From a virus (Duplodnaviria; Caudoviricetes): a stretch of 24,226 nucleotides of DNA. This document shows positions 1 to 19,701 of this stretch, piece after piece. Both the position numbers and the translations under genes were made by a program. Every line of letters begins with the position of its first letter. The stretch's first letter is position 1. The DNA is taken from positions 1-24,226 of IMG/VR virus record IMGVR_UViG_3300031651_000020, one strand, 5' to 3'. The notes beneath the pieces are model-generated. The model did not search any database. It saw only the letters and a program-made list of their open reading frames with translations, and was not told the origin of the DNA.

Positions 1-282
1 GAGTTGGTATCAAGGGTTCATCCGACACAAAAACCAGTTGGATTATTTATAAGCATACTTAATGACTTTGGGGGAAATTCTATTTTGGATTCTTTCCTAG
101 GTTCAGGTACAACTCTAATCGCCTGCGAAAAACTTAACCGCATCTGCTATGGCATGGAAATTGAACCCCTGTATATTCAAGTCTGTCTCGATAGATGGGC
201 TAATTTTACAGGAAATGATCCCATAAGAGAAGACGGGAAAAAGTGGAGCGAAATGAAAGCAGAAATTTCAGAGGGAGCGTGA
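1..282 (+). CDS. DNA modification methyltransferase (N6/N4 family), C-terminal part; begins before the window
   Basis: HPTQKPV and ILDSFLGSGTTLIACEKLNRICYGMEI (SAM-binding motif); such methylases often sit just upstream of phage terminase genes. Confidence 0.9.
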   Translation, partial: ELVSRVHPTQKPVGLFISILNDFGGNSILDSFLGSGTTLIACEKLNRICYGMEIEPLYIQVCLDRWANFTGNDPIREDGKKWSEMKAEISEGA

Positions 283-834
283 AGCATGCCATCGAATTAT
301 AGCACAGGAACGACAATAAAGGCTTCGTCCTTTGGTTTGTTTGCCACAATCAATACAGGTTCTTGGCCTTCTTTTTGGAAGGAAGTTTTTATTGTGAATT
401 TTGCCATGACAATCAATGCAATAAGAAATGCCATTGTCAATATTAAACCTCAGTTCGGGATACTTGGAAAATGGTTTTATGTGGTGGGCATGAAGCTCTT
501 TTTTGTTCCCACATTTTTGGCAAGTATAGTTGTCTCGTTTAAAAACTGCTTCACGCCATTCCTTCAATTGATTAGAAAGGCGAGCTCTTTCACGAAACAT
601 AGACTTACCGTCTTTAAAGGCATTGCCACGAGTCCCCCGACGAGCACAAGAACGAGAACAAAATCTTTGAATTCTTATATAAGCCTTAAAGGGCTTTTGG
701 CAGAATTCACAGATTTTATTATCTGGAGGATTTCTATTATTCCAACATTTTTTACTGCAGTATTTAGAGTTTTCAGACCTATAAGGAAAGGCCCTATATT
801 CTTGTCCACAAATAACACAACTTTTCTTAACCAT
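268..834 (-). CDS. HNH endonuclease with Cys-rich zinc-binding repeats, antisense to the operon
   Basis: WREAVFKRDNYTCQKCG...LHAHHIKPF...NIDNGISYCIDCHGKIH HNH core; several CxxC...CSxxC motifs. Start placed at ATG 834 because the ORF track's TTG (870) is part of the -35 box. Confidence 0.9.
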   Translation of the reverse strand: MVKKSCVICGQEYRAFPYRSENSKYCSKKCWNNRNPPDNKICEFCQKPFKAYIRIQRFCSRSCARRGTRGNAFKDGKSMFRERARLSNQLKEWREAVFKRDNYTCQKCGNKKELHAHHIKPFSKYPELRFNIDNGISYCIDCHGKIHNKNFLPKRRPRTCIDCGKQTKGRSLYCRSCAIIRWHASRSL

Positions 835-936
835 CTCATAAATTATAACAAAAATTACATAGCAAGTCAACCGACAACAAACTACTGCGAGGATACCCCA
901 GAAGAAGAGATAAGGGCAACGAGGGAAAATGGCTAG
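286..936 (+). other. 216-codon operon-strand ORF antisense to HNH-1 (candidate translational bridge ORF)
   Basis: GAGGGAG at 271-277; ATG 3 nt after the methylase stop; TAG overlaps the terS start; codon-aligned with the HNH gene; no recognisable protein family. Confidence 0.45.
842..870 (-). promoter_or_regulatory. sigma70-type promoter for the first HNH gene (predicted leaderless mRNA)
   Basis: Minus strand TTGACT (870-865), 17 nt spacer ending TGT (extended -10), TATAAT (847-842), 7 nt, then ATG at 834; no Shine-Dalgarno. Confidence 0.8.
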
Positions 937-5296: not shown

Positions 5297-6802
5297 ATGG
5301 CAAAGGAAATATTGACACAAAGACTAAAGCTTTCTGAGATAAAAGTTTCTTGGAACGATTTAAGGGAAGAGGCGATAAAAGATATATTGAAAAGTCCCAA
5401 AGTGCCTTACCGCAGCGCCGGGGATATTCCTTTTATCCGGAAGTTTTATGTTCAGGACAAGAAGGTGACGAAGGGCTTGCCGGAAGGGCAGGTACGGCAT
5501 TACATATCGACAATGGCTTTGGACAGAGACCATGAGATAATGATGCCGAAAGGAGCTAAGCTCAAGAACTACAAGAAGAATCCGATGGTTTTGTGGTCTC
5601 ATAACCCTTCGGATCCTGATAATATTATAGGCAAAAACCTCGAAATTGAACATGATGAGAAAGGCTTGGTGGCTCTGACGCAGTTCATTCTGACGAGCCC
5701 AAAGGCGGCAAGCATTTATAACTTGTTCAAAGAAGATTGGCTGAGGATGTGGTCGGTTGGATTCATACCGCTGAAAGGTCATAAACCAGAAAAGGGGGAC
5801 GGAAAGCTTTCAATTTCCATAGGTGAGCCCCCGAAGTCAGGTGAGGTGAGGTATGTCCATGACGTCTGGGAATTGTTGGAATACTCGGCCTGTGCTGTCC
5901 CATCGAATCCAGAAGCGGCGACTCTGGAAGTGGCTAAAGGTTACGACTTATCAGACGATCTGATTAAGGAGATGGGATTGAATCTTGAAAACATAAACAG
6001 GTTGAAGGCCAAGTTAGAAGGAGGGAAAGAGGATGGCAAAAAAATTATCGACTTGGGGGCTTTGAGTAAAGATGATAAGAAAAAAGAAGAACTCAAAGAG
6101 GAAAAGAAGGATGAGGATAAAACACAGGCGGAAGTTAAAGGGGCAATCCCTTACGCAGATCATGGAGCAGCAGATGAGGGAACAGCTTGGGATGGACCGA
6201 GAGAGATAAGGGAAGCAGATGTTGATGCGCTGAAAATAATCTGCGCATGGTATGATTCAGGAAATGCAGACAAAAAATCAAGCTATAAGTTGCCACATCA
6301 CAGAGCAGGAGACAAGAAGGCTGTATGGCGCGGGGTTTCGGCAGCTATGGGGGCATTGCTTGGGGCTCGTGGCGGAGTAGTAATCCCGGGTGGAGACAGG
6401 AAAAGCGTCTATGATCATCTGAAATCGCATTATAAACATTGGGACAAGGAGCCTCCTGACTTTAAAGATTACAGCGATGAGGAATTGACGGAAATATTTC
6501 CTGAGGAAAAGAAAGCAAAATATGAATGTGAATGTATTAAATGTGGTTATAAGATGGGAAGTGACGAACATTGTGCTGATATAAAATGCCCGAAATGCGG
6601 AGGAGAAATGAGAAGGGTAGAGCGTCCGGGGCCGGGTAGGAGTGATGAAGAGGAAGCAAGAAAGCAATTAGGGCTTACTGTTGAGGAATATGAAAATCTT
6701 AATTGGGATAGCGTAGAGGGCTTAGACCCGGAAGAGTTCAAAAAACTTTATGAAGAAGGTGAGAAAATTAGTGATGAGGAAGTTGGATATTATGAGCAAT
6801 AA
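5297..6802 (+). CDS. HK97-type prohead protease with C-terminal accessory domains
   Basis: DRDHEI..KG, KNPMVLWSH, MWSVGFIP, WELLEYSACAVPSNPEA protease motifs; then a charged linker, a YKLPHH...VWRGV.AAMGALLGARGG domain and a Cys zinc ribbon; AGGAGG SD. Confidence 0.9.
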   Translation: MAKEILTQRLKLSEIKVSWNDLREEAIKDILKSPKVPYRSAGDIPFIRKFYVQDKKVTKGLPEGQVRHYISTMALDRDHEIMMPKGAKLKNYKKNPMVLWSHNPSDPDNIIGKNLEIEHDEKGLVALTQFILTSPKAASIYNLFKEDWLRMWSVGFIPLKGHKPEKGDGKLSISIGEPPKSGEVRYVHDVWELLEYSACAVPSNPEAATLEVAKGYDLSDDLIKEMGLNLENINRLKAKLEGGKEDGKKIIDLGALSKDDKKKEELKEEKKDEDKTQAEVKGAIPYADHGAADEGTAWDGPREIREADVDALKIICAWYDSGNADKKSSYKLPHHRAGDKKAVWRGVSAAMGALLGARGGVVIPGGDRKSVYDHLKSHYKHWDKEPPDFKDYSDEELTEIFPEEKKAKYECECIKCGYKMGSDEHCADIKCPKCGGEMRRVERPGPGRSDEEEARKQLGLTVEEYENLNWDSVEGLDPEEFKKLYEEGEKISDEEVGYYEQ

Positions 6803-7322
6803 GAATAGATTCAAGTTTAAAAATATAATTTTTCATTTTTCTAATTGTATAGTGTTCGCTGTTAGGATGAAGTTCAAGATTTTCAAGAGAATTATTAGTT
6901 TTATTCCCATCTTTATGATGAACATGTTCCCAAGTTTCAAGAGGACGATCAAGAGATTTAGACATTACAAAACGATGTTCATAGATTTCGCCTCTTTTGT
7001 CAGCCATTGGATGATGCTTCCCAAGAAATATTTTTATATATCCATGATTAGTAGGTTTTCGTTGAAGAGGACGATTTCTATTCTTTTCTTCCCATGTAAG
7101 AAAACGATAGCAATTCTTACAAACACCAGTAAAAATGCCAGTTTTCAATCTTTTCAAAACTATGTCTTTCCGCCATGCACGAATATTGCCACATTTACCA
7201 CAAGATATATTAATCATAAGCCTTTTTGCCCCATTTGGATCAACTTTTTGAAATTCGTTTTCCCAATGAATTATCGATTTAGATTTAAGAATTTGATTTT
7301 TCAAAATTGTTTTCTTTTTCAT
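6768..7322 (-). CDS. HNH endonuclease (HNH_3-like), antisense to the operon
   Basis: GYIKIF...HPMAD..G.IYEHRFVM...L.RPL...EHVHHKDGNKTNNSLENLEL; AT-rich. Confidence 0.92.
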   Translation of the reverse strand: MKKKTILKNQILKSKSIIHWENEFQKVDPNGAKRLMINISCGKCGNIRAWRKDIVLKRLKTGIFTGVCKNCYRFLTWEEKNRNRPLQRKPTNHGYIKIFLGKHHPMADKRGEIYEHRFVMSKSLDRPLETWEHVHHKDGNKTNNSLENLELHPNSEHYTIRKMKNYIFKLESILIAHNIQLPHH

Positions 7323-7371: not shown

Positions 7372-8052
7372 ATGCCATTTCCACAAGAACATTCATGCCG
7401 ATTAAAAAATCCTAATTTATTCACGCCTGGGTCATTCCGGAGCTACTCAAGAACGAGTGACGGCAAGAAATACCGAGTCATAGCAGGAAGGCTGAAGGGT
7501 GAAACGACAATGACAGAGCAGGGATTCAGGTATCCGAAGGATGCATGGACTTCGGCACAGGCAAGCAAGCATTGCAAAGATCATGACGGAATCAAGTTCG
7601 AGCCGGCGAAAGAAGTAGAGACATTGGACATTGACATTGCAAAGAATCTGTTAGAGGAGTTTAGCTTACTGAAAAATGACATAATGGAGATGAGATCAGG
7701 CAGAGTAATCTCGGCAAAGAACCGGAGGCTGCTCACGGATTGTCACGGCAAGATGAATGAGGCGGCACAAGCGTTGGCTGTTTTGTTGAAAGAAACAGCG
7801 GTAGAGGAAGAGAGAGATTCTGAGTCTGAGGCTGAGGAAGAGGAAAGGAGCGGAGACGACAAAAAATTAAAAATAAATTTTGAATTAGCGAAGTTGAAGC
7901 CACCAGTTAAAGCCGTCAAGGATGGTGATAAAGTGATAAAAGTTATTGACAAAGAGCAGGCCAAAAAGTTGGCTGAGGAACTCGTAGAGAAATTGGATTT
8001 GAGAAAAATAGTGCAGGAGAAGCTTGACTTTTTAAAAGGAAAAGTGCAATAA
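7372..8052 (+). CDS. Head assembly protein resembling the C-terminal/scaffold part of prohead proteases
   Basis: GAGGAGGT SD; PFPQEHSCRL...RYPKDAWT..A..HC..H.G..FEPA domain, then GRVISAKNRRLL and an acidic helical tail; lies between protease and capsid genes. Confidence 0.7.
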   Translation: MPFPQEHSCRLKNPNLFTPGSFRSYSRTSDGKKYRVIAGRLKGETTMTEQGFRYPKDAWTSAQASKHCKDHDGIKFEPAKEVETLDIDIAKNLLEEFSLLKNDIMEMRSGRVISAKNRRLLTDCHGKMNEAAQALAVLLKETAVEEERDSESEAEEEERSGDDKKLKINFELAKLKPPVKAVKDGDKVIKVIDKEQAKKLAEELVEKLDLRKIVQEKLDFLKGKVQ

Positions 8053-8277
8053 AGAAGAAATGACTATTAATATAACTACACACACATCGACTGAACTTGT
8101 TCACTACGGTCAAATAGCGAACTTGATAACTTCTTTATTAACAATAACTTAGGATGTAATGACTAAAAAAGGAACAAAATAGTTGAAAATATGATAAATA
8201 GTGATTATTTTATGAATAACGCTTTTAAAGTCCATTTAAGGACTATTTGAGATAGCATCTATTCTTGATTTTTGAGT

Positions 8278-8404
8278 AGATTTTAGTGAAGTAGCTGCCA
8301 GTAGAAAATGAAGCGAGCCCGGAGTAGCCGAAAGGCGAAGTGCTTGCGGAGTAATTTTCAAGGGGCAGTGAAGCGGAGTTGAAAGAGGTTGAGACTAGAA
8401 ATTT
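8278..8404 (+). ncRNA. Candidate structured cis-RNA in the capsid gene leader
   Basis: Nested helices GCTGCC/GGCAGT, GAAAAT/ATTTTC, GCGAGC/GCTTGC, GCC-GAAA-GGC, separated by AGUA/GAA internal loops; closing stem TTTTAGT/ACTAGAA next to the SD. Confidence 0.6.
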
Positions 8405-8420
8405 TTAAGGAGATAGAAAG

Positions 8421-9803
8421 TTGGGAAAAGAACAAGAAGAAAAAAACGAATTCACATTAAAAGACCTTAAAGAGCTTGTATCATCAATTATTGAGTCGAA
8501 TGTCATGAGCCAAGGGTTTGTCAAGCTGGGTGAACTGAAGGAACAGATCAAGACTGAATTGGCTTCGGTGGTGTCCGAGCAGAAAGACCTGAAAAAAGCA
8601 CTGGAAAAAGAGATTGAAAAGCTGGCAAATCTGCCAGGTCCCCGGGGTGATGTTGATGTAGGAAAAGATGGCGGAAACGAGCTCAAGGGCTTGAGTAAAT
8701 CAGGCGGGTATGATTCGTATTCGATGTTTGCGAAAGACGTGTATGTGGCATCAAAGCCTCAGGTCCGGGAATTAGCCCCCAGACTCAAGAAGTGGACAAG
8801 TGATGTAGAGGCATACGAGAAGATTATCATGAGCGGTAAGCCGGATTACGGTGATCCGTCATTAGTAATAAGCGATCCAGAACAGGGTGGTTATCTTATC
8901 CCCCCGGAATATTCAGCCAATTTGATGGAGAGAGGTTTTACCAATGCTGATTTCGCACCTATGGCGGATATTATCCCTATGGCAAGAAACACAGTCCACA
9001 TTCCTTTTATCAAGGATTTCACGCACACAACGTATTTGTACGGCGCTATGATGGCCTATTGGCTGGACGAACTTGGGACAAAATTGCCAACGAAGCCGAA
9101 ATTCGGAAAGACTACTCTTGAACTCAATAAGCTGGTGGTGTTGGTTTACAGCTCAGACGAATTACTGGAAGACTCCCCGATTTCGATGGAGCCCTTGCTC
9201 ACAAAGAAATCCGGGAACGTCATCAAGTGGAAAGTTGACGAATCAATGCTGGTAGGAACTGGAGTTGGACAGCCTCTCGGGGTTTTGAATTGCCCGGCGT
9301 TAATTCCTGTGCCCATTCAGGCAGGACAGGCAGCCGGTACTATAGTCTGGCAGAACATCGCCGACATGTGGAGCAGGGTGCATCCAGCATCAATACCGAA
9401 TGTTGTTTGGGTAGCGAATAACAGCATCTTCCCGCAGTTGATGGCGATGGCGATGGCAGTAGGAACAGGCGGAGCGCCGGTTTATCTACCTGCAAACGGT
9501 TTCAGTGCAAAGCCTTTTGACACCCTGATGGGCAAAAGAATAATCTGGTCTGAACACTCCCCGATTCTCGGACAGCAAGGTGATATTGCGCTAATAGACT
9601 GGAGTCAGTATATGGTTGGACAGAAAAGAGGCGCAGGCGCAGGAATCAAGACAGCGACATCGATTCATTTGATGTTCCTCTACGACCAGACAGCATTCAG
9701 GTTTGTATTCAGGATGGACGGTCAGCCCTGGTGGCCGACTGTTTTCACTCCCAAAAACGGCAACCCGCAATCCCCGTTCATAACTCTCAAGAAGAGAGTA
9801 TAG
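8421..9803 (+). CDS. Major capsid protein (HK97 fold) with N-terminal delta/scaffold-like coiled coil
   Basis: GGYLIPPEY, SDELLEDS, GTGVGQPLGVLN, TLMGKRI, DQTAFRFVFRMDGQP; TTG start with AAGGAG SD. Confidence 0.95.
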   Translation: MGKEQEEKNEFTLKDLKELVSSIIESNVMSQGFVKLGELKEQIKTELASVVSEQKDLKKALEKEIEKLANLPGPRGDVDVGKDGGNELKGLSKSGGYDSYSMFAKDVYVASKPQVRELAPRLKKWTSDVEAYEKIIMSGKPDYGDPSLVISDPEQGGYLIPPEYSANLMERGFTNADFAPMADIIPMARNTVHIPFIKDFTHTTYLYGAMMAYWLDELGTKLPTKPKFGKTTLELNKLVVLVYSSDELLEDSPISMEPLLTKKSGNVIKWKVDESMLVGTGVGQPLGVLNCPALIPVPIQAGQAAGTIVWQNIADMWSRVHPASIPNVVWVANNSIFPQLMAMAMAVGTGGAPVYLPANGFSAKPFDTLMGKRIIWSEHSPILGQQGDIALIDWSQYMVGQKRGAGAGIKTATSIHLMFLYDQTAFRFVFRMDGQPWWPTVFTPKNGNPQSPFITLKKRV

Positions 9804-12301: not shown

Positions 12302-13246
12302 ATGAAGGTTCTAATCGTAACTGACAAATATGCGATGTCAAATGACATATCAAACGGTTACCGGGTCGGCAAGGCTTTCGGGTCCTTGGGTCATGATGTT
12401 AGTTTTGTGAGTCCTGAAATGGCATCGACAAAGGCGGGAGACGCTGATTTCATTCTAGGGTTTAATTCACTTCTGTACAGTTACCGGATGTTCTTGAATG
12501 TATGGATATCGAAAGCGAAGGCCCCGAAGGCAAAATTTGCTATATGGAACTTTGATTCTTGTAGTGATATTGACGGAATGAATAAAATGCGCAACAGAAA
12601 CATCAGGAAAATAATCCCATATATAGACCTGCTGATTACAACGGATCACGACTTCCCTTGGGAAAACCATATTGATAATTATCTGCATTTAAGCCAGGGG
12701 GTCGATCCAGAAGATTTCAATTATACACTCGGCAACAATGAAGACAGGCCGTATGATGTGATTTATACTGGAGGGATATATGACAGAGAGCCGGAAAGAA
12801 TACAGGCTTTAGAGAAAATCGGACAAAAGTTCAAAAGTATTATTTATACTTCAAGCAATGGAGACAAACTTCCTGAGCTGAAAAAATTGACTTTGAAGGC
12901 TAGTGTTTACGGGAAAGATTTTTTCGATGCGTACCAGCAAGCAAAAATCGCTTTCGTGCCCAGGCCGCCCTCTGAAATCAAGGAAAACTACTGGAGTAAT
13001 CGGATTTATTTGGCAGCCGCTACGGGGACTTGTTGCCTTGTTGAATATGTGAAAGGTATAGAGAAAGAGTTTAATTCTTTTGAAGAAGTGTTGTATTCAT
13101 TTGGTAGCAACGATATTGTCGAAAAGATAAAATTTCTGTTGTCAGATCCAGGACTGAGGTTAGAGCTTGGCAGAAATGCAAGGCAGAGGGTTCTTAATAA
13201 TTATAAATATTCAAACAGAGTTAAAAAAATACTGGAGATCTTATGA
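12302..13246 (+). CDS. Glycosyltransferase, GT-B fold (CgeB / Glyco_trans_1_2-like)
   Basis: MKVLIV start, GHDV, HLSQGVDP, DVIYTG, YWSNRIY.AAATG, ELGRNARQRVLNNYKYSNRV. Confidence 0.85.
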   Translation: MKVLIVTDKYAMSNDISNGYRVGKAFGSLGHDVSFVSPEMASTKAGDADFILGFNSLLYSYRMFLNVWISKAKAPKAKFAIWNFDSCSDIDGMNKMRNRNIRKIIPYIDLLITTDHDFPWENHIDNYLHLSQGVDPEDFNYTLGNNEDRPYDVIYTGGIYDREPERIQALEKIGQKFKSIIYTSSNGDKLPELKKLTLKASVYGKDFFDAYQQAKIAFVPRPPSEIKENYWSNRIYLAAATGTCCLVEYVKGIEKEFNSFEEVLYSFGSNDIVEKIKFLLSDPGLRLELGRNARQRVLNNYKYSNRVKKILEIL

Positions 13247-13923
13247 AAATATCGCTGTTTATTCCTGTCTGGAAGCGGTTCAAATACCTTAAAAATGTGC
13301 TACAGGCATGGTCTCCGCAGGTTGATGACATAACAGTCTGGGATGATTCAGGAGAAGAAAGAAAATATTCCAGCAAAGTCACAGTGATAAGAGCCTCCAA
13401 AAGGCAAGGCAGTCATATCAAATTCAAAACAGCCCAGATTCTTAAGAACGACATGGTTCTGATAAGCGATGACGACATCATGCCGGGGCAAAATCTGGTT
13501 GCGGAACTCATGGCCGGATTCAATAAAATTCCATTGGATGACGAACTGAAAGTAATAACCATATTCGGGAGAAAGCTGTCTAAACACGGCTACCAAAGCT
13601 ATCCGCTGCAAAGGGCAGATCTGATTACAGAAATTCAGGAAGTTGATTGGGCAGGGCGACTGCTGTTTGGACATCGGAAGAATTTTATGATTGATATAAC
13701 CAAGTGCCCCAACTATTTGCTGGACGATCTGTTCTGGTCATTTGAGCTTCGCAGGCAAAGACCAAAAGCAAAGATATTTGTTATTCCTACAATAGAATGG
13801 GGGAATACCCTTGAAGCTAATGATAAAAATTCGCTTTGCAATATTCCCGGGTACTGGATAATGAGAAACAATTTTGTAAGAATGAATTACGAGAAATATT
13901 TTAATGAAGGGCACGAAAAATGA
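13243..13923 (+). CDS. Glycosyltransferase, GT-A fold
   Basis: MKISLFIPVWKR, ITVWDDSG, LISDDDI (DxD), DDLFWS; ATGA coupling. Confidence 0.8.
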   Translation: MKISLFIPVWKRFKYLKNVLQAWSPQVDDITVWDDSGEERKYSSKVTVIRASKRQGSHIKFKTAQILKNDMVLISDDDIMPGQNLVAELMAGFNKIPLDDELKVITIFGRKLSKHGYQSYPLQRADLITEIQEVDWAGRLLFGHRKNFMIDITKCPNYLLDDLFWSFELRRQRPKAKIFVIPTIEWGNTLEANDKNSLCNIPGYWIMRNNFVRMNYEKYFNEGHEK

Positions 13924-14672
13924 AGGCACGAGTATTGAACCATATTATGTATTTAGACCCTGAAGATCAGCTTATATCCAAAAATTTGTTTAATAATAAG
14001 GGTCATGAGCTTAACGAAACCGCCCTTGTATTAAAGACGCTAAAAAAGGGTGATGTGGCCATAGACATAGGAGCGCATATTGGTTATTTCACTTTGATAA
14101 TGGCAAGGTGTGTCGGGCGGCAGGGAAAGACATACGCTTTTGAGCCATCGCCTAGAAATTTTAAATTATTGCAAAAAAACGTTGATTACAATGGTTATAA
14201 GAATGCGACTCTCATCCCCAAAGCCGTCTCTGATAGATCGGAGGAAGCAACGTTATATCTGAATCCTGGGAACACGGGAAACAACATGCTTTTTAAAAGA
14301 ACTAATAATGTTCAAGGAATTCGGATTGAGACCATATCGCTTGACAATTATTTCTCTGACATTGATTTCAATATTGATTTCATTAAGATTGACGTAGAGG
14401 GTTCAGAGCCTTTGGTCATAAACGGGATGAAGAAAATACTTGAGGAGTTTGCATACATAAATCTAATGATAGAGTTTTTCCCGCAATTGCTCAGGGTTTC
14501 AGGATTTGACCCCCGGGCTTTCCTGGTCACGCTGAGAGAGCTTGGCTTTAAACTGTATTTTATAGAAAAAGGTAAGCTGAAAGCATTTAATCAAATCGCA
14601 AGCAGGTATATTAATCACCTAACTTGGCACAAAAACATTTATTGTGAGAGCATGATGAGGTATGAAAAATGA
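13920..14672 (+). CDS. FkbM-family SAM methyltransferase
   Basis: IDIGAHIGYFT, YAFEPSP.N, AVSD, DFIKIDVEGSEPLVING. Confidence 0.92.
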   Translation: MKARVLNHIMYLDPEDQLISKNLFNNKGHELNETALVLKTLKKGDVAIDIGAHIGYFTLIMARCVGRQGKTYAFEPSPRNFKLLQKNVDYNGYKNATLIPKAVSDRSEEATLYLNPGNTGNNMLFKRTNNVQGIRIETISLDNYFSDIDFNIDFIKIDVEGSEPLVINGMKKILEEFAYINLMIEFFPQLLRVSGFDPRAFLVTLRELGFKLYFIEKGKLKAFNQIASRYINHLTWHKNIYCESMMRYEK

Positions 14673-16484: not shown

Positions 16485-16903
16485 AAATTAACGGATTTAA
16501 AGACAGTGAATACGCTAGAGAACCTAGGACTGTCCTTAAAAGATACCTTGAAGAATGGGAGAAGAGAGACTGGGCTGGAATGGTTGAAGACACGCAAAAA
16601 TCTTGGGTGTTGGCAATGCCAGATCCAGAAGAGATGCTGAAGGTCATCTTTTCATATAAGCCAATTGAGGCTACCTTGATAAGGGAAGCGATGTTGAGCA
16701 ACGTAGCTTATGCCTGTATATTAAACATGCAATATCTGGTGGCTAGAGGGGTTGTGGCAGACGTCCAGTTTGACGCGAGAGTTATCTGTGAGATTGATCA
16801 GCTGATGCCGTCTCCTGATGGAGATTGGGGAGTGAACCCCATCAGCTTGACCCCGACAATGGGGCTTGGATATAAAAATGATAAGGCCGAAAATCGTTGT
16901 TAA
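16481..16903 (+). CDS. Hypothetical protein (140 aa)
   Basis: ATGA-coupled ORF in the neck module ending CE....PSPDGDWGVNPISL; no function recognised. Confidence 0.7.
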   Translation: MKINGFKDSEYAREPRTVLKRYLEEWEKRDWAGMVEDTQKSWVLAMPDPEEMLKVIFSYKPIEATLIREAMLSNVAYACILNMQYLVARGVVADVQFDARVICEIDQLMPSPDGDWGVNPISLTPTMGLGYKNDKAENRC

Positions 16904-18353
16904 GCCTGGTAAGGTATTTCTTACAAATTGTAAGTTATTGCCGGTCAAGGTGAGAGAAGCAGTCAAAAAAGCGACGCTGATGACTGCCTATCAGATTCAT
17001 AACGACGCCAAAATTTTGTGTGTTCATCCACGAACGAAAGTTTTGACTAATGATGGCTGGAAGCCAATTAAAGACATATCTACAGGTGAATTAATTGTTA
17101 CAGAATCAGGAAAAATGAAGCCAGTAGAACAAATCGTAAAAAGTAAGCCTAAAGAAATTATCAGGCTTTATATAAACGCCATAAATAATGGTTTAACGCA
17201 AATAAAAGGCACATTTTCGTCTATTTCAGCAAGCCCAGAACATATAATAAAAACAAGTCTGGGTTGGAAAAAATTCGGTGATATTATTGAGGGCGAAAAA
17301 ATATATTTTCTTGCTTCAAAATGTAAAGAATGTGGTAAATTAAAGCCTTTTTTTAGTGTTTTTTGTTCTCAATCTTGTGGCGGAAAATGGAAATATAAAC
17401 ACGGAGAAGGAGAAAAGGGCTTGAAAATAGGACACGTTAAAGCAAAAGAATTTGCCCAAAAAAGAGACAGTGAATTAATTATAAAGAAAGGGAAAGAATG
17501 GAGAGAGAATAATCCAGAAAAAGTAAAAAAATATCATGCAAGACAAGGTAGAACGCTTGCTGAATTTTATAAGAAATATCCTGAGAAACATCCGAATGCT
17601 GTTTGTGCGAAAAATCATTTCTTTACAAAACTAGAGAGGAAGATCAAAAAATTATTACAAGAATTAAATATTGATTATATCCATCAATTTAAAGTTTGCA
17701 AATATTGGGCAGATTTTTCTTTGCCAAACATGAAGATTTTATTGGAATGCGATGGCGAGCACTGGCATCGAGATAAAAATAAAGAGGATAAAAGAGATAA
17801 AGAAATAAAAAAATTAAAACCAGATTATCGATTAATCCATTTAAGTGAGGAAGAGATTAATAATATAACGATGACTGGTTTATCTCAATACTTATCATGT
17901 GGTTTAGGCGATATTAGACTTATTGAGTTGAAGGTCAAGAAGATTAAAAGAATAAAAACCCCAAAATATTGTCCTCATTTTATCGATTTAGTAATTAATG
18001 GAGGTAAGGGAACGTTTATCGCGAATGGATTTTTAGTCCATAATTGTCCGGTCGATACGGGCAGGCTGAGAGCATCGATTTCCGTAAACTGGACAGGCAG
18101 TGGTATGTCGTATGGCAAGGTTACAGGGAAAACATCGGCAAAGGCCGGAAGGAAACCAAGCTCTGGCTCAGATGGAGTCGGGCAGCCCCCGAAGGAAATG
18201 GGTGGTTTTTACGCTTCTGTGGGTACTAATGTGGAGTATGCAGAGGATGTCGAGAATTATACATCTCCTTATCTGTGGCCCGCATTTGCTATGAACAGAG
18301 AGAAATACAAGGCGGCTTTGGTGATCGCGTTGGGAGCGGCTATAAAATTATGA
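16878..18353 (+). CDS. HK97 gp10-like neck/tail-completion protein, intein-containing precursor
   Basis: Removing the intein joins DAKIL to CPVDTGRLRASI and VGTNVEYA..VE...PYLWPA (~149 aa); ATG 16878 preferred as start. Confidence 0.85.
   Translation: MIRPKIVVKPGKVFLTNCKLLPVKVREAVKKATLMTAYQIHNDAKILCVHPRTKVLTNDGWKPIKDISTGELIVTESGKMKPVEQIVKSKPKEIIRLYINAINNGLTQIKGTFSSISASPEHIIKTSLGWKKFGDIIEGEKIYFLASKCKECGKLKPFFSVFCSQSCGGKWKYKHGEGEKGLKIGHVKAKEFAQKRDSELIIKKGKEWRENNPEKVKKYHARQGRTLAEFYKKYPEKHPNAVCAKNHFFTKLERKIKKLLQELNIDYIHQFKVCKYWADFSLPNMKILLECDGEHWHRDKNKEDKRDKEIKKLKPDYRLIHLSEEEINNITMTGLSQYLSCGLGDIRLIELKVKKIKRIKTPKYCPHFIDLVINGGKGTFIANGFLVHNCPVDTGRLRASISVNWTGSGMSYGKVTGKTSAKAGRKPSSGSDGVGQPPKEMGGFYASVGTNVEYAEDVENYTSPYLWPAFAMNREKYKAALVIALGAAIKL
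17019..18044 (+). mobile_element. Intein (342 aa) with zinc finger and Vsr/DUF559-like endonuclease
   Basis: Starts CVHPRTKVLTNDGWKPIKDI, block B SPEH, ends FIANGFLVHN followed by Cys+1; internal YWADF...LLECDGEHWH; more AT-rich than flanks. Confidence 0.92.
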
Positions 18354-18754
18354 GCGACAACACAAGCTATCCAATTGAAGCCTTGCAGACAACTTTGCAT
18401 ACGCTTCTAATCGGTATTACAGGAGGATTATACGATGAGGTCCCGGAAGGCGCAGGCCTACCGTATTCGACTTTTGGCGACATGGTTGATGAGCCTATGG
18501 AAGCCCGGGGAGTTAAGGGCAGGATGGTTGTTGTGCCGATTCATGTCTACAGCAAGGATTCAGGTGGCAGGTTTCAGGCTGCCGGTATAATGAAAGAGAT
18601 AGTGGAACTGGTGACAGCAGATGCCTTAACGATAGTTGGTTGGCAGGATTGTGGAAAAGTATATAAGGCCGGAAAGATAGAGAGGATGAAAAAGGATAGC
18701 GGATACAGCTATCACGGGATATTGACTTTTTTAATAACGGTGTGCAAAAAATGA
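18350..18754 (+). CDS. Tail terminator/completion protein (DUF3168-like)
   Basis: ALQ..L...L, LYDEVPEGA.LPY..FG, IHVYS, YHGIL.F; ATGA overlap at 18350. Confidence 0.8.
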   Translation: MSDNTSYPIEALQTTLHTLLIGITGGLYDEVPEGAGLPYSTFGDMVDEPMEARGVKGRMVVVPIHVYSKDSGGRFQAAGIMKEIVELVTADALTIVGWQDCGKVYKAGKIERMKKDSGYSYHGILTFLITVCKK

Positions 18755-19701
18755 GACTAGATGACGTGGCGGTAGTGGTCACTACTTTTATGAGGGAGAA
18801 CGACTGCATGAAATGTTTATCTAGCATAAGGAAATTCTACCCAGATATAAAGGTGCTTGTGGCAGATAATGGAAGGCATAAGGACGAGCGGTTTATTAAT
18901 TTTCTGGACAGGATGAATATTGACTATGTAATTCTTCCTTTTGATAGCGGGGTAAGCAAGACCAGAAACGTTGCATTGGACAACTTAAAGGATTTCCCCT
19001 ATATTCTATTATTAGAGGACGACATGGAACTCACTGAGGAATCGGAAATCGAGAAATTCAAGGCTGTTCTTGAGGCGGAGCCAGGACTCGGGATGATAGC
19101 TGGGGCGATTGATCTAGATAGCGGAGCCAGGGCACTTTGGGCACAGCAATTGGAAATCAATAGGAAAGACAAAATGCTTTTCTCGTATCCGATAGTGAAT
19201 CCAGAATGGATTGTATCGAATGGCGTGAGATGGCATTATGCAGATCAGGCCAGTAATTTTGTCTTGTTGAGAAACAATCAAGACATAAGATGGGACAGCG
19301 ATTTGAAGTCCGGAGGAGAGCATATAGATTTTGCAATTCACATAAAGCTTGATACAGCTTGGAGATGCAGCGTAACTGATGAGGTTATTTGCCTTCATCA
19401 TGCCGGAGAAAAAACACCTGGCTATCTGAGACGCAGGCACAGAGGCGACACGTGGCCAAAGATAAGGAAAAAGAGAGGGTTGTTATTCTGGGTTGAAAAC
19501 AGCAGAAAAGCAATCTGGGATTACAAAAATGCGAGAGGAATATTTTATCCTGAATATATGTATAATCTGATGAAGACCATAAACGAATCTAACGGTAAAA
19601 AACTTGCAAAGAATAAGGATTTTTTAAGAAAAATAAACAGGGGTGAAACCTTAGAGGTTAATTTAAAGCACCCCGATTTTAAGGAGGCTCAAAATGGCTG
19701 A
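18751..19701 (+). CDS. Glycosyltransferase family 2
   Basis: VVVTTFMR, VLVADNG, FDSGVSKTRN, ILLLEDD, GEHIDF; ATGA overlap. Confidence 0.88.
   Translation: MRLDDVAVVVTTFMRENDCMKCLSSIRKFYPDIKVLVADNGRHKDERFINFLDRMNIDYVILPFDSGVSKTRNVALDNLKDFPYILLLEDDMELTEESEIEKFKAVLEAEPGLGMIAGAIDLDSGARALWAQQLEINRKDKMLFSYPIVNPEWIVSNGVRWHYADQASNFVLLRNNQDIRWDSDLKSGGEHIDFAIHIKLDTAWRCSVTDEVICLHHAGEKTPGYLRRRHRGDTWPKIRKKRGLLFWVENSRKAIWDYKNARGIFYPEYMYNLMKTINESNGKKLAKNKDFLRKINRGETLEVNLKHPDFKEAQNG

Follow-up and report, generated by a model that had tools for sequence, protein, structure and literature searches.

A predicted RNA rod with repeated loop-E modules before the major capsid gene of HK97-type phages

Our results show that a predicted RNA rod in front of the major capsid gene of an HK97-type phage is conserved, together with its loop-E modules, as RNA structure of the plus strand. 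The DNA that we analysed, here called the window, comprises the 24,226 bases of a virus record with a head-tail gene block. As far as sequence comparison can tell, the rod is a real and so far uncatalogued structured RNA element. What makes it distinctive is that a single rod has four loop-E modules, that the spacing to the start codon is fixed and that the modules are exchangeable across the lineage. Our preferred reading, to which we assign a probability of roughly 0.45, is that the rod is a cis-acting element of the capsid mRNA at which a protein docks to control translation.

The rod and its parts

The rod lies in a gap of 368 nt between the end of the upstream open reading frame (8052) and the TTG start of the capsid gene (8421). 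An earlier note on this DNA, made from the letters alone, had named a TTG-start capsid gene, and this is confirmed: the TTG is found at 8421 and the gene (8421-9803, + strand, 460 aa) has an HK97-type product (phrog_10, E 1e-41; PF05065, E 6.5e-39). The note had also seen a GC-richer island, and G+C is indeed 0.52 in 8290-8372 compared to 0.28 in 8053-8257. The whole element is predicted to be an unbranched irregular RNA rod of 142 nt on the + strand (8258-8399), judging from the MFE and centroid folds of 8240-8430, from pair probabilities and from a close relative, L063.

The closing stem has a 5' arm of 4 bp, a mismatch and 11 bp (8258-8273, + strand), which pairs with a 3' arm (8384-8399) whose last base is 21 nt 5' of the start codon. 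Pair probabilities in this stem are 0.89-0.98 when upstream sequence is included. The longest regular helix in the rod is its stretch of 11 bp, which in the window includes 6 G-U pairs. A different closing stem had been proposed before, 8281-8287/8394-8400, for an element spanning 8278-8413. These bases are complementary on paper, but with upstream sequence each pair has a probability of only 0.001, and the equivalent positions are unpaired in L063. The proposed boundaries were wrong as well: since the closing stem is 8258-8273/8384-8399, the element is 8258-8399.

Next to the closing stem, predicted module 0 (8275-8284, + strand like all parts of the rod) sets AGUA 8275-8278 opposite GAA 8381-8383, followed by a G-U rich helix of 6 bp (8279-8284/8375-8380). 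Module 1 (8290-8299) has AGUA 8290-8293 opposite GAA 8370-8372 and then helix P1 (8294-8299/8364-8369). It is followed by a purine-rich 4x4 internal loop (8300-8303 opposite 8360-8363), both strands of which differ in L063. The AGUA at 8300 was ruled out as a loop-E module; it stands opposite AAGG and reads AGGA in L063. Helix P2 (8304-8309/8354-8359) and module 2, with GAA 8310-8312 opposite AGUA 8350-8353, come next (8304-8312), and here the orientation is reversed relative to modules 0, 1 and 3. The tip of the rod (8313-8347) is predicted to consist of helix P3 (8313-8320/8340-8347), module 3 (AGUA 8323-8326 opposite GAA 8337-8339), helix P4 (8327-8329/8334-8336) and a GNRA tetraloop (8330-8333). 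Outside the rod (8400-8423, + strand) lie an A/U-rich spacer (8400-8407), the SD AGGAG (8408-8412) and the UUG start (8421-8423). This stretch is unpaired in the centroid, whereas the MFE fold shows weak pairing of 8403-8407.

Much of this core had been recognised in the earlier note. The helices that it listed (8294-8299/8364-8369, 8304-8309/8354-8359, 8313-8318/8342-8347 and 8327-8329/8334-8336, with a GAAA loop) form the centroid, at pair probabilities of 0.91-1.0 in the fold of 8240-8430, and its three AGUA/GAA oppositions (8290/8370, 8350/8310 and 8323/8337) hold. All four copies of AGUA that it listed are present, but the count was wrong: the gap contains five, and the overlooked copy at 8275 belongs to a fourth loop-E module. 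We also agree that the element does not look like a terminator, as there is no + strand terminator site in 7900-8500. An intrinsic terminator or attenuator was rejected too; most clade members do not maintain the run of five U that follows the rod in the window.

How often would such an arrangement arise by chance? Our strict loop-E detector counts a module where AGUA is followed by a helix with 4 bp or more, or with 3 bp if GNRA caps it, and where GAA stands on the opposite side. It finds four nested AGUA-helix-GAA modules in the element. Among 3000 dinucleotide shuffles of 8271-8420, 2526 have zero modules, 459 have one, 15 have two and none has more than two, and among 3000 shuffles of the whole gap three modules occur in 14 and four in none. 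When 482 sliding windows per strand are scanned, at least two modules are found in only two of them, both over the rod. When viral contigs were scanned for the spacing of the stacked motifs, 45 stretches emerged: 2 have flanking helices and are copies of this phage, and the other 43 are chance. The folding energy is unremarkable alone, with z of -1.06 for 8270-8420, -2.32 for the core and -1.51 for 8240-8430. This is to be expected, because nearest-neighbour energies count loop-E modules as unpaired loops.

[quoted passage not shown] The sarcin-ricin/loop-E module sets AGUA (or GGUA) opposite GAA (or AAA) in an internal loop between helices, and in three dimensions it has an S-turn, a base triple and non-canonical pairs. 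All four modules of the window have the AGUA/GAA opposition, and modules 1-3 also keep their letters invariant while the flanks covary. Such a module is a building block and not a family; in the window, four copies are predicted in one mRNA leader and in both orientations. The ribosomal sarcin-ricin loop has a GNRA tetraloop one base pair away from the bulged-G module. We dismissed the idea that the rod mimics this loop: three base pairs separate the tetraloop from the module in the window and in L063, and there is no such tip in L117, L069 and L180.

The earlier note could not match the element to a named family, and this holds for Rfam 15, where we obtained 3 chance matches for the window and 2 for 8040-8440, none of them over the element, as well as 0 gathering-score matches in 20 related loci. 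Identity with a T-box, riboswitch, ribozyme, group I intron or phage motif was discarded, there being no Rfam 15 match. An arrangement of this kind is unusual: the only comparable case with four E-loops that we found is Dictyoglomi-1 (RF01703), a candidate RNA of unknown function that is drawn with four of them (PMC2864571). Dictyoglomi-1 has about 235 nt, helices P1-P3 and four representatives in Dictyoglomi, whereas the window has a single rod of 142 nt before a phage capsid gene. A cmscan with RF01703 gave no match up to E 10, either on the window or on 8040-8440.

Conservation in relatives

All loci with a 100% identical capsid belong to the same phage and have a common leader. Covariation for the exact fold is judged on L063, the one independent close relative found, whose capsid is 90% identical. 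The earlier note had suggested testing the leaders of relatives for covariation, and compensating changes in L063 do support the core fold. Window and L063 align without gaps over the 93-nt core, and the 25 core pairs comprise 6 double changes, 6 single changes, 9 unchanged pairs and 4 pairs broken in one sequence (2 of the 25, columns 36-37, were picked after both sequences had been seen). Pairing is kept in 92% of cells for these two sequences compared to 35-46% in slid registers, and 11 of 500 shuffles reach the observed pairing, which is a weak control with two sequences. All 21 loop-E nucleotides of modules 1-3 are invariant, whereas of the 50 helix nucleotides 27 are (Fisher p 5e-5).

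All 11 pairs of the 11-bp closing helix form in the window and in L063 (164-174/286-296), with 5 double changes, 4 single changes and 2 unchanged pairs. P1 is 100% paired in L063, with 1 double and 2 single changes, and the motif of module 1 is invariant. There are 2 double changes, 1 single change and 1 broken terminal pair in P2, 2 double changes in P3 and 1 in P4, and the GAAA loop becomes GCAA, so that GNRA is retained. The AGUA of module 0 is not retained in L063.

For a wider comparison, 185 capsid-bearing loci were reduced to 162 with at least 150 nt upstream of the auto-called start and then to 119 distinct leaders; some starts and upstream stops among these loci are miscalled. The close set consists of 19 leaders at tblastn scores of at least 400 bits, window included, and the distant set of the other 100. 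Strict modules occur in 9 of the 19 close leaders (14 modules versus 1.3 expected) and in 0/19 of both the reverse-strand and the coding controls. Nine of the 100 distant leaders have strict modules (10 versus 5.8 expected). With a tolerant detector the close set gives 25 versus 6.2 expected, and the distant set 41 versus 35.8, which is near chance. On a tree of 112 capsids, whose group labels are partly hand-set, these close leaders fall within one clade of 20 rows (SH-aLRT 100 in a quick search), equivalent to only about nine lineages.

Members of this clade carry purine-loop rods at the equivalent place, and these are enriched in loop-E modules. L117, L069 and L180 have a common three-module rod with double changes in 8 of 32 pairs, and double modules with two-fold symmetry are found in L003, L077 and L146/147/152. 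L072, L073 and L129 have purine-loop rods with no AGUA modules in the rod. A covariance model of the window and L063 (R1) matched only its own two members in 100 sources, and a model of L117/L069/L180 (R2) matched L003 (E 0.01) and L070 (E 0.16) and left the leaders of the window and L063 unmatched. An alignment with MAFFT failed to bring the rod of the window into register with those of L117/L069/L180/L070. Since R2 misses the window and L063, what the rods share is modules and position, and their status as one family has no covariance-model support.

Long irregular hairpins between cistrons invite comparison with the early RNA of phage T7, where irregular hairpins serve as RNase III processing signals. 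The rod could likewise mark where RNase III or another endonuclease cuts a polycistronic late message, separating the protease cistron from the capsid cistron: it is a long irregular intercistronic hairpin with a basal duplex of 11 bp + 4 bp, and in L146, L147 and L152 hardly any of the 89-90-nt gap is left outside the hairpin. We think this quite unlikely. No regular helix is longer than the 11 bp with their 6 G-U pairs, the conserved feature is loop-E and not duplex, and rod length varies widely, between 62 and 143 nt among the rods called at 21-28 nt from the start codon.

More distant relatives have a different module. The repeated pattern YUG-GAR-RYRY-YAG, which was written after the data had been seen, has at least two sites in 21 of the 119 leaders, compared to 0 on the reverse strand, 0 in coding sequence and 0-1 in five shuffles. 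Where sites are nested, 25 of 27 pairs of central 4-mers are fully complementary versus 11.9 on permutation (0 of 10,000 permutations reach 25), and the nested sites form two staggered 3-nt bulges flanking a covarying 4-bp helix. This GAG-bulge module is commoner than the loop-E rod across relatives and has no Rfam match in the loci tested. It was observed 10-190 nt before the capsid start in L009, L010, L012, L081, L099, L107, L110, L111, L176 and others. By inspection, GAG-bulge and loop-E are combined in L004, L067, L068, L093, L184 and L085. The sequence of the module is kept across capsids only 33-48% identical to the query. That distant relatives keep a repeated, sequence-conserved module at the equivalent place points to specific recognition.

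Canonical bulge-helix-bulge motifs have each bulge 3' of the central helix on its strand. The archaeal bulge-helix-bulge consists of two 3-nt bulges with a 4-bp helix between them (PMC3978253), and the GAG-bulge module agrees with it in size, with two 3-nt bulges and a 4-bp centre in the 25 of 27 pairs. A true bulge-helix-bulge was nevertheless rejected, as the bulge is 5' of the covarying 4-mer on both strands, a mirror-image stagger.

The GAG-bulge module is also quasi-palindromic, which together with the modest folding z could be taken to mean that the conserved signal is a DNA-level element (a cruciform, an operator or a packaging signal) or chance. We consider this extremely improbable. 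The G-U-rich pairing exists on the + strand only: the minus strand folds at -22.6 kcal/mol, far more weakly than the + strand at -43.9 kcal/mol, which argues that the selected object is the RNA of the capsid-coding strand. The 0/19 reverse strands with loop-E, the compensatory changes and the 0/3000 shuffles with four nested modules argue in the same direction.

Structured RNAs have been proposed at this genomic position before. Fremin, Bhatt and Kyrpides (2023) report six candidate RNAs that lie no more than 25 bases from a gene for an HK97 capsid domain (DNAVirus_1143, 1925, 6842, 6891, 8491 and 933; PMC10690425). These candidates share the equivalent position, an IMG/VR source and a proposed cis-regulatory role with our elements, and compared by description only it is possible that the loop-E rod or the GAG-bulge module overlaps with them. 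The term 'loop E' has 0 occurrences in the main text of that paper. Searches of the open-licence literature did not turn up any account of a capsid leader with loop-E modules, and a phage T4 review yielded nothing about capsid leaders (PMC3014915).

Spacing to the capsid start and genomic setting

Our comparison also shows that the position of the predicted rod is fixed to the capsid start codon and free of the upstream gene. Unconstrained folding gave no constant rod-end spacing in the leaders, because pairing into the SD and the coding region dominated. If the stretch from the SD to the start is held unpaired, a rod is called in 19 of the 20 clade members. Nine of the 20 then have the rod base 21-22 nt from the start codon and 15 have it at 21-28 nt; in none is it closer than 21 nt. 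For shuffles of the upstream sequence the spacing is 21-22 nt in 11/240 and below 21 nt in 89/240; if the last 21 nt are kept fixed, these numbers are 14/240 and 42/240. The spacing of 21-22 nt is seen in five of the about nine lineages, and the consensus fold of L117, L069 and L180 closes 21 columns before the start. Distances on the other side vary: the gap to the upstream gene is 89-402 nt in 17 clade members (L063, L065 and L072 are left out, as their upstream stop is unreliable), and from the upstream stop to the rod there are 205 nt in the window, 42 in L063 and 5 in L147.

The major 30S footprints in E. coli are reported as -20 to +10, -20 to -5 and -15 to +15 (bioRxiv 10.1101/2025.04.04.647229). 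As the footprint reaches to about -20, the rod base could hardly lie closer to the ribosome-binding site and still leave it free. In the window, the predicted rod abuts at -22 and does not overlap the SD. The constant spacing of 21-22 nt could also mean that the rod docks onto host machinery, with loop-E contacting the 30S platform or S1, and acts as an enhancer that offsets the weak UUG start. UUG starts are enriched in the loop-E clade (TTG or GTG capsid starts in 11/19 close versus 9/100 distant relatives), and 30S binding 5' of start regions is reported to be common in E. coli (bioRxiv 10.1101/2025.04.04.647229). Such docking seems improbable to us. The platform is described as a non-specific binder of single-stranded backbone (PMC3936740), modules and their distance to the rod base vary by lineage, and rods also occur in members with an ATG start.

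Small hairpins are found near the rod. The window has one at 8229-8244, and others lie likewise 5' of the rods in L004, L003, L180, L081, L117 and L070, preceding them by about 5-25 nt and often with a U-rich tail. In L081 a promoter would not fit beside the small hairpin, a hint that the RNA arises by read-through or processing and not as a new transcript. We saw no conserved promoter before the rod, and a promoter scan found one sigma-70-like site at 8183-8211, which is at chance level (3 found, 1.4 +/- 1.1 expected). L146, L147, L148 and L149 have a perfect TTGACA within the final codons of the upstream gene, at a distance of about 45-70 nt 5' of the rod; a weak -10-like hexamer follows after 17 nt. 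The TTGACA may be a by-product of conserved Ile-Asp codons.

The upstream open reading frame (7372-8052, + strand) is the C-terminal half of a prohead-protease gene and ends in a conserved helix and a GKV motif; this C-terminal motif recurs across relatives, and the product is likely the scaffold region of the protease. In the window a free-standing HNH endonuclease gene, encoded on the other strand (6768-7322), interrupts the protease gene and divides it into 5297-6802 and 7372-8052; the second of these is equipped with a strong SD and an ATG of its own. Both halves form one contiguous frame in 7 relatives (L147, L146, L068, L180, L003, L065 and L117). At 7990-8052, and at the same place in most related loci, the protein tail is a conserved amphipathic helix followed by (K/R)xG(K/R)(V/I), possibly a coat-binding scaffold tail. 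The tail is present in phages both with and without the leader; as the basic motif also occurs in leaderless relatives, it gives no sign of RNA binding.

Elsewhere in the record, a second antisense HNH endonuclease gene (268-870, minus strand) lies just 5' of the small terminase. An open reading frame in the head-tail joining region (16866-18353) contains an intein (Hint domains, below the Pfam cut-off) and an inserted DUF559-type nuclease. Glycosyltransferases (PF13524 and PF00535) and an FkbM-family methyltransferase are encoded inside the virion structural block (12302-14672 and 18742-19701), which suggests virion glycosylation.

The window is contained in 24 listed sequencing runs, all of DNA and all labelled salt marsh, and four runs show no variants in the parts that they cover. 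The closest annotated capsid relatives are just 34-38% identical, and when annotated phages were searched by blastn with 8240-8430, the 17 short matches were at chance level. Capsid matches in a genome collection are 12 loci on MAG contigs with mixed labels, the best at 56%.

What the rod may do

Summed over all cis explanations, it is highly probable that the rod belongs to the capsid mRNA and works in cis. Of the functions put forward in the earlier note, comparison favours a cis element of the capsid mRNA and disfavours a free assembly RNA. An independent non-coding RNA with a pRNA-like role in assembly or packaging could make use of the repeated modules, which are two-fold symmetric in L003, L077 and L146 and could contact an oligomer. 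This seems very unlikely to us, however, because no terminator follows the rod, because the rod keeps its place relative to the capsid start codon and because many relatives with the same head genes lack the leader (28 of 113 gaps are shorter than 60 nt, a few of them miscalled).

We regard a passive stabiliser or insulator as possible, at odds clearly below even. The rod would then be the 5' end of the capsid message, made by processing or from an upstream promoter, and would block decay, take up intercistronic sequence and in this way keep the ribosome-binding site open. Loop-E would keep the helix stacked in pieces too short for RNase III, and no phage protein would be needed. HK97-type heads need the capsid protein in far higher copy than the protease, which suits a stabiliser. 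The spacing fits equally well, since the rod ends just beyond the 30S footprint and is followed by the A/U spacer, and the occurrence of differing modules at one position in different lineages fits in part. The U-tailed hairpins just 5' of the rod in L004, L003, L180 and L081 fit too. There is also a precedent in design: long upstream hairpins were given internal loops to evade RNases, and upstream hairpins were tolerated given single-stranded flanks (PMC3936740). Nevertheless, any irregular stable hairpin would suffice for this purpose, yet the motif letters are invariant while the helices drift, and the GAG-bulge sequence is kept across very different capsids. Moreover, the folding energy is ordinary (z -1.5), there is no conserved promoter, the site at 8183-8211 is at chance level and L063 has just 42 nt from stop to rod.

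The leader of phage T7 gene 10 and other 5' stem-loop stabilisers are short regular hairpins behind a known promoter. The T7 leader resembles ours in having a hairpin, an A/U-rich tract and a free SD before a major capsid gene. In contrast, the rods of the window and its relatives are 60-140 nt long, modular and intercistronic, and have no identified promoter.

We prefer docking of a protein that controls capsid translation, because passive stability leaves the invariant letters, the repetition, the symmetry and the replacement of modules unexplained. The repeated non-canonical modules would be a recognition surface and would not serve stability alone. In the predicted fold the rod stops just outside the 30S footprint and leaves the A/U spacer, the SD and the weak UUG start free, and the non-AUG starts of the close relatives speak for this reading too. 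The likeliest reader of the rod, by analogy, would be capsid or scaffold protein that is not yet in proheads. Once docked, the head protein would hinder 30S loading, and this feedback would tune capsid synthesis, much as the P22 scaffold does. With the SD outside the rod, only a steric block could bring about repression. Further points against this reading are the many leaderless relatives, the single relative behind the covariation and the result that neither R1 nor R2 connects the rods of the clade. The scaffolding protein of phage P22 is said to regulate its own synthesis, reportedly described by Wyckoff and Casjens in 1985. This is a precedent for a head-assembly protein that controls the synthesis of a head protein, although it acts on the scaffold gene itself, and we know of no loop-E rod in its regulation.

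One could go further and argue that sediment HK97-type phages have a modular RNA operator that couples capsid translation to assembly, sits at the border of the 30S footprint and is read cooperatively by unassembled head protein. The operator would be made of loop-E in one clade, of the mirror-image bulge-helix-bulge in others and of both in intermediates. We put both parts of this reading forward as speculation that we ourselves doubt more than we believe.

How the ratio of capsid to protease and scaffold is set from one late transcript is poorly understood in tailed phages. The element is short and well bounded and comes with natural variants (four-module, two-module symmetric, mixed, GAG-bulge-only and leaderless), which makes the question of the ratio directly testable by reporters and binding assays. 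Without a partner, the rod would only be a further structured capsid leader awaiting characterisation; leaders of this kind have been published already. If the modular operator exists, it would be an RNA operator for the major capsid protein of tailed phages, and its exchangeable modules would mark the co-evolution of RNA and protein.
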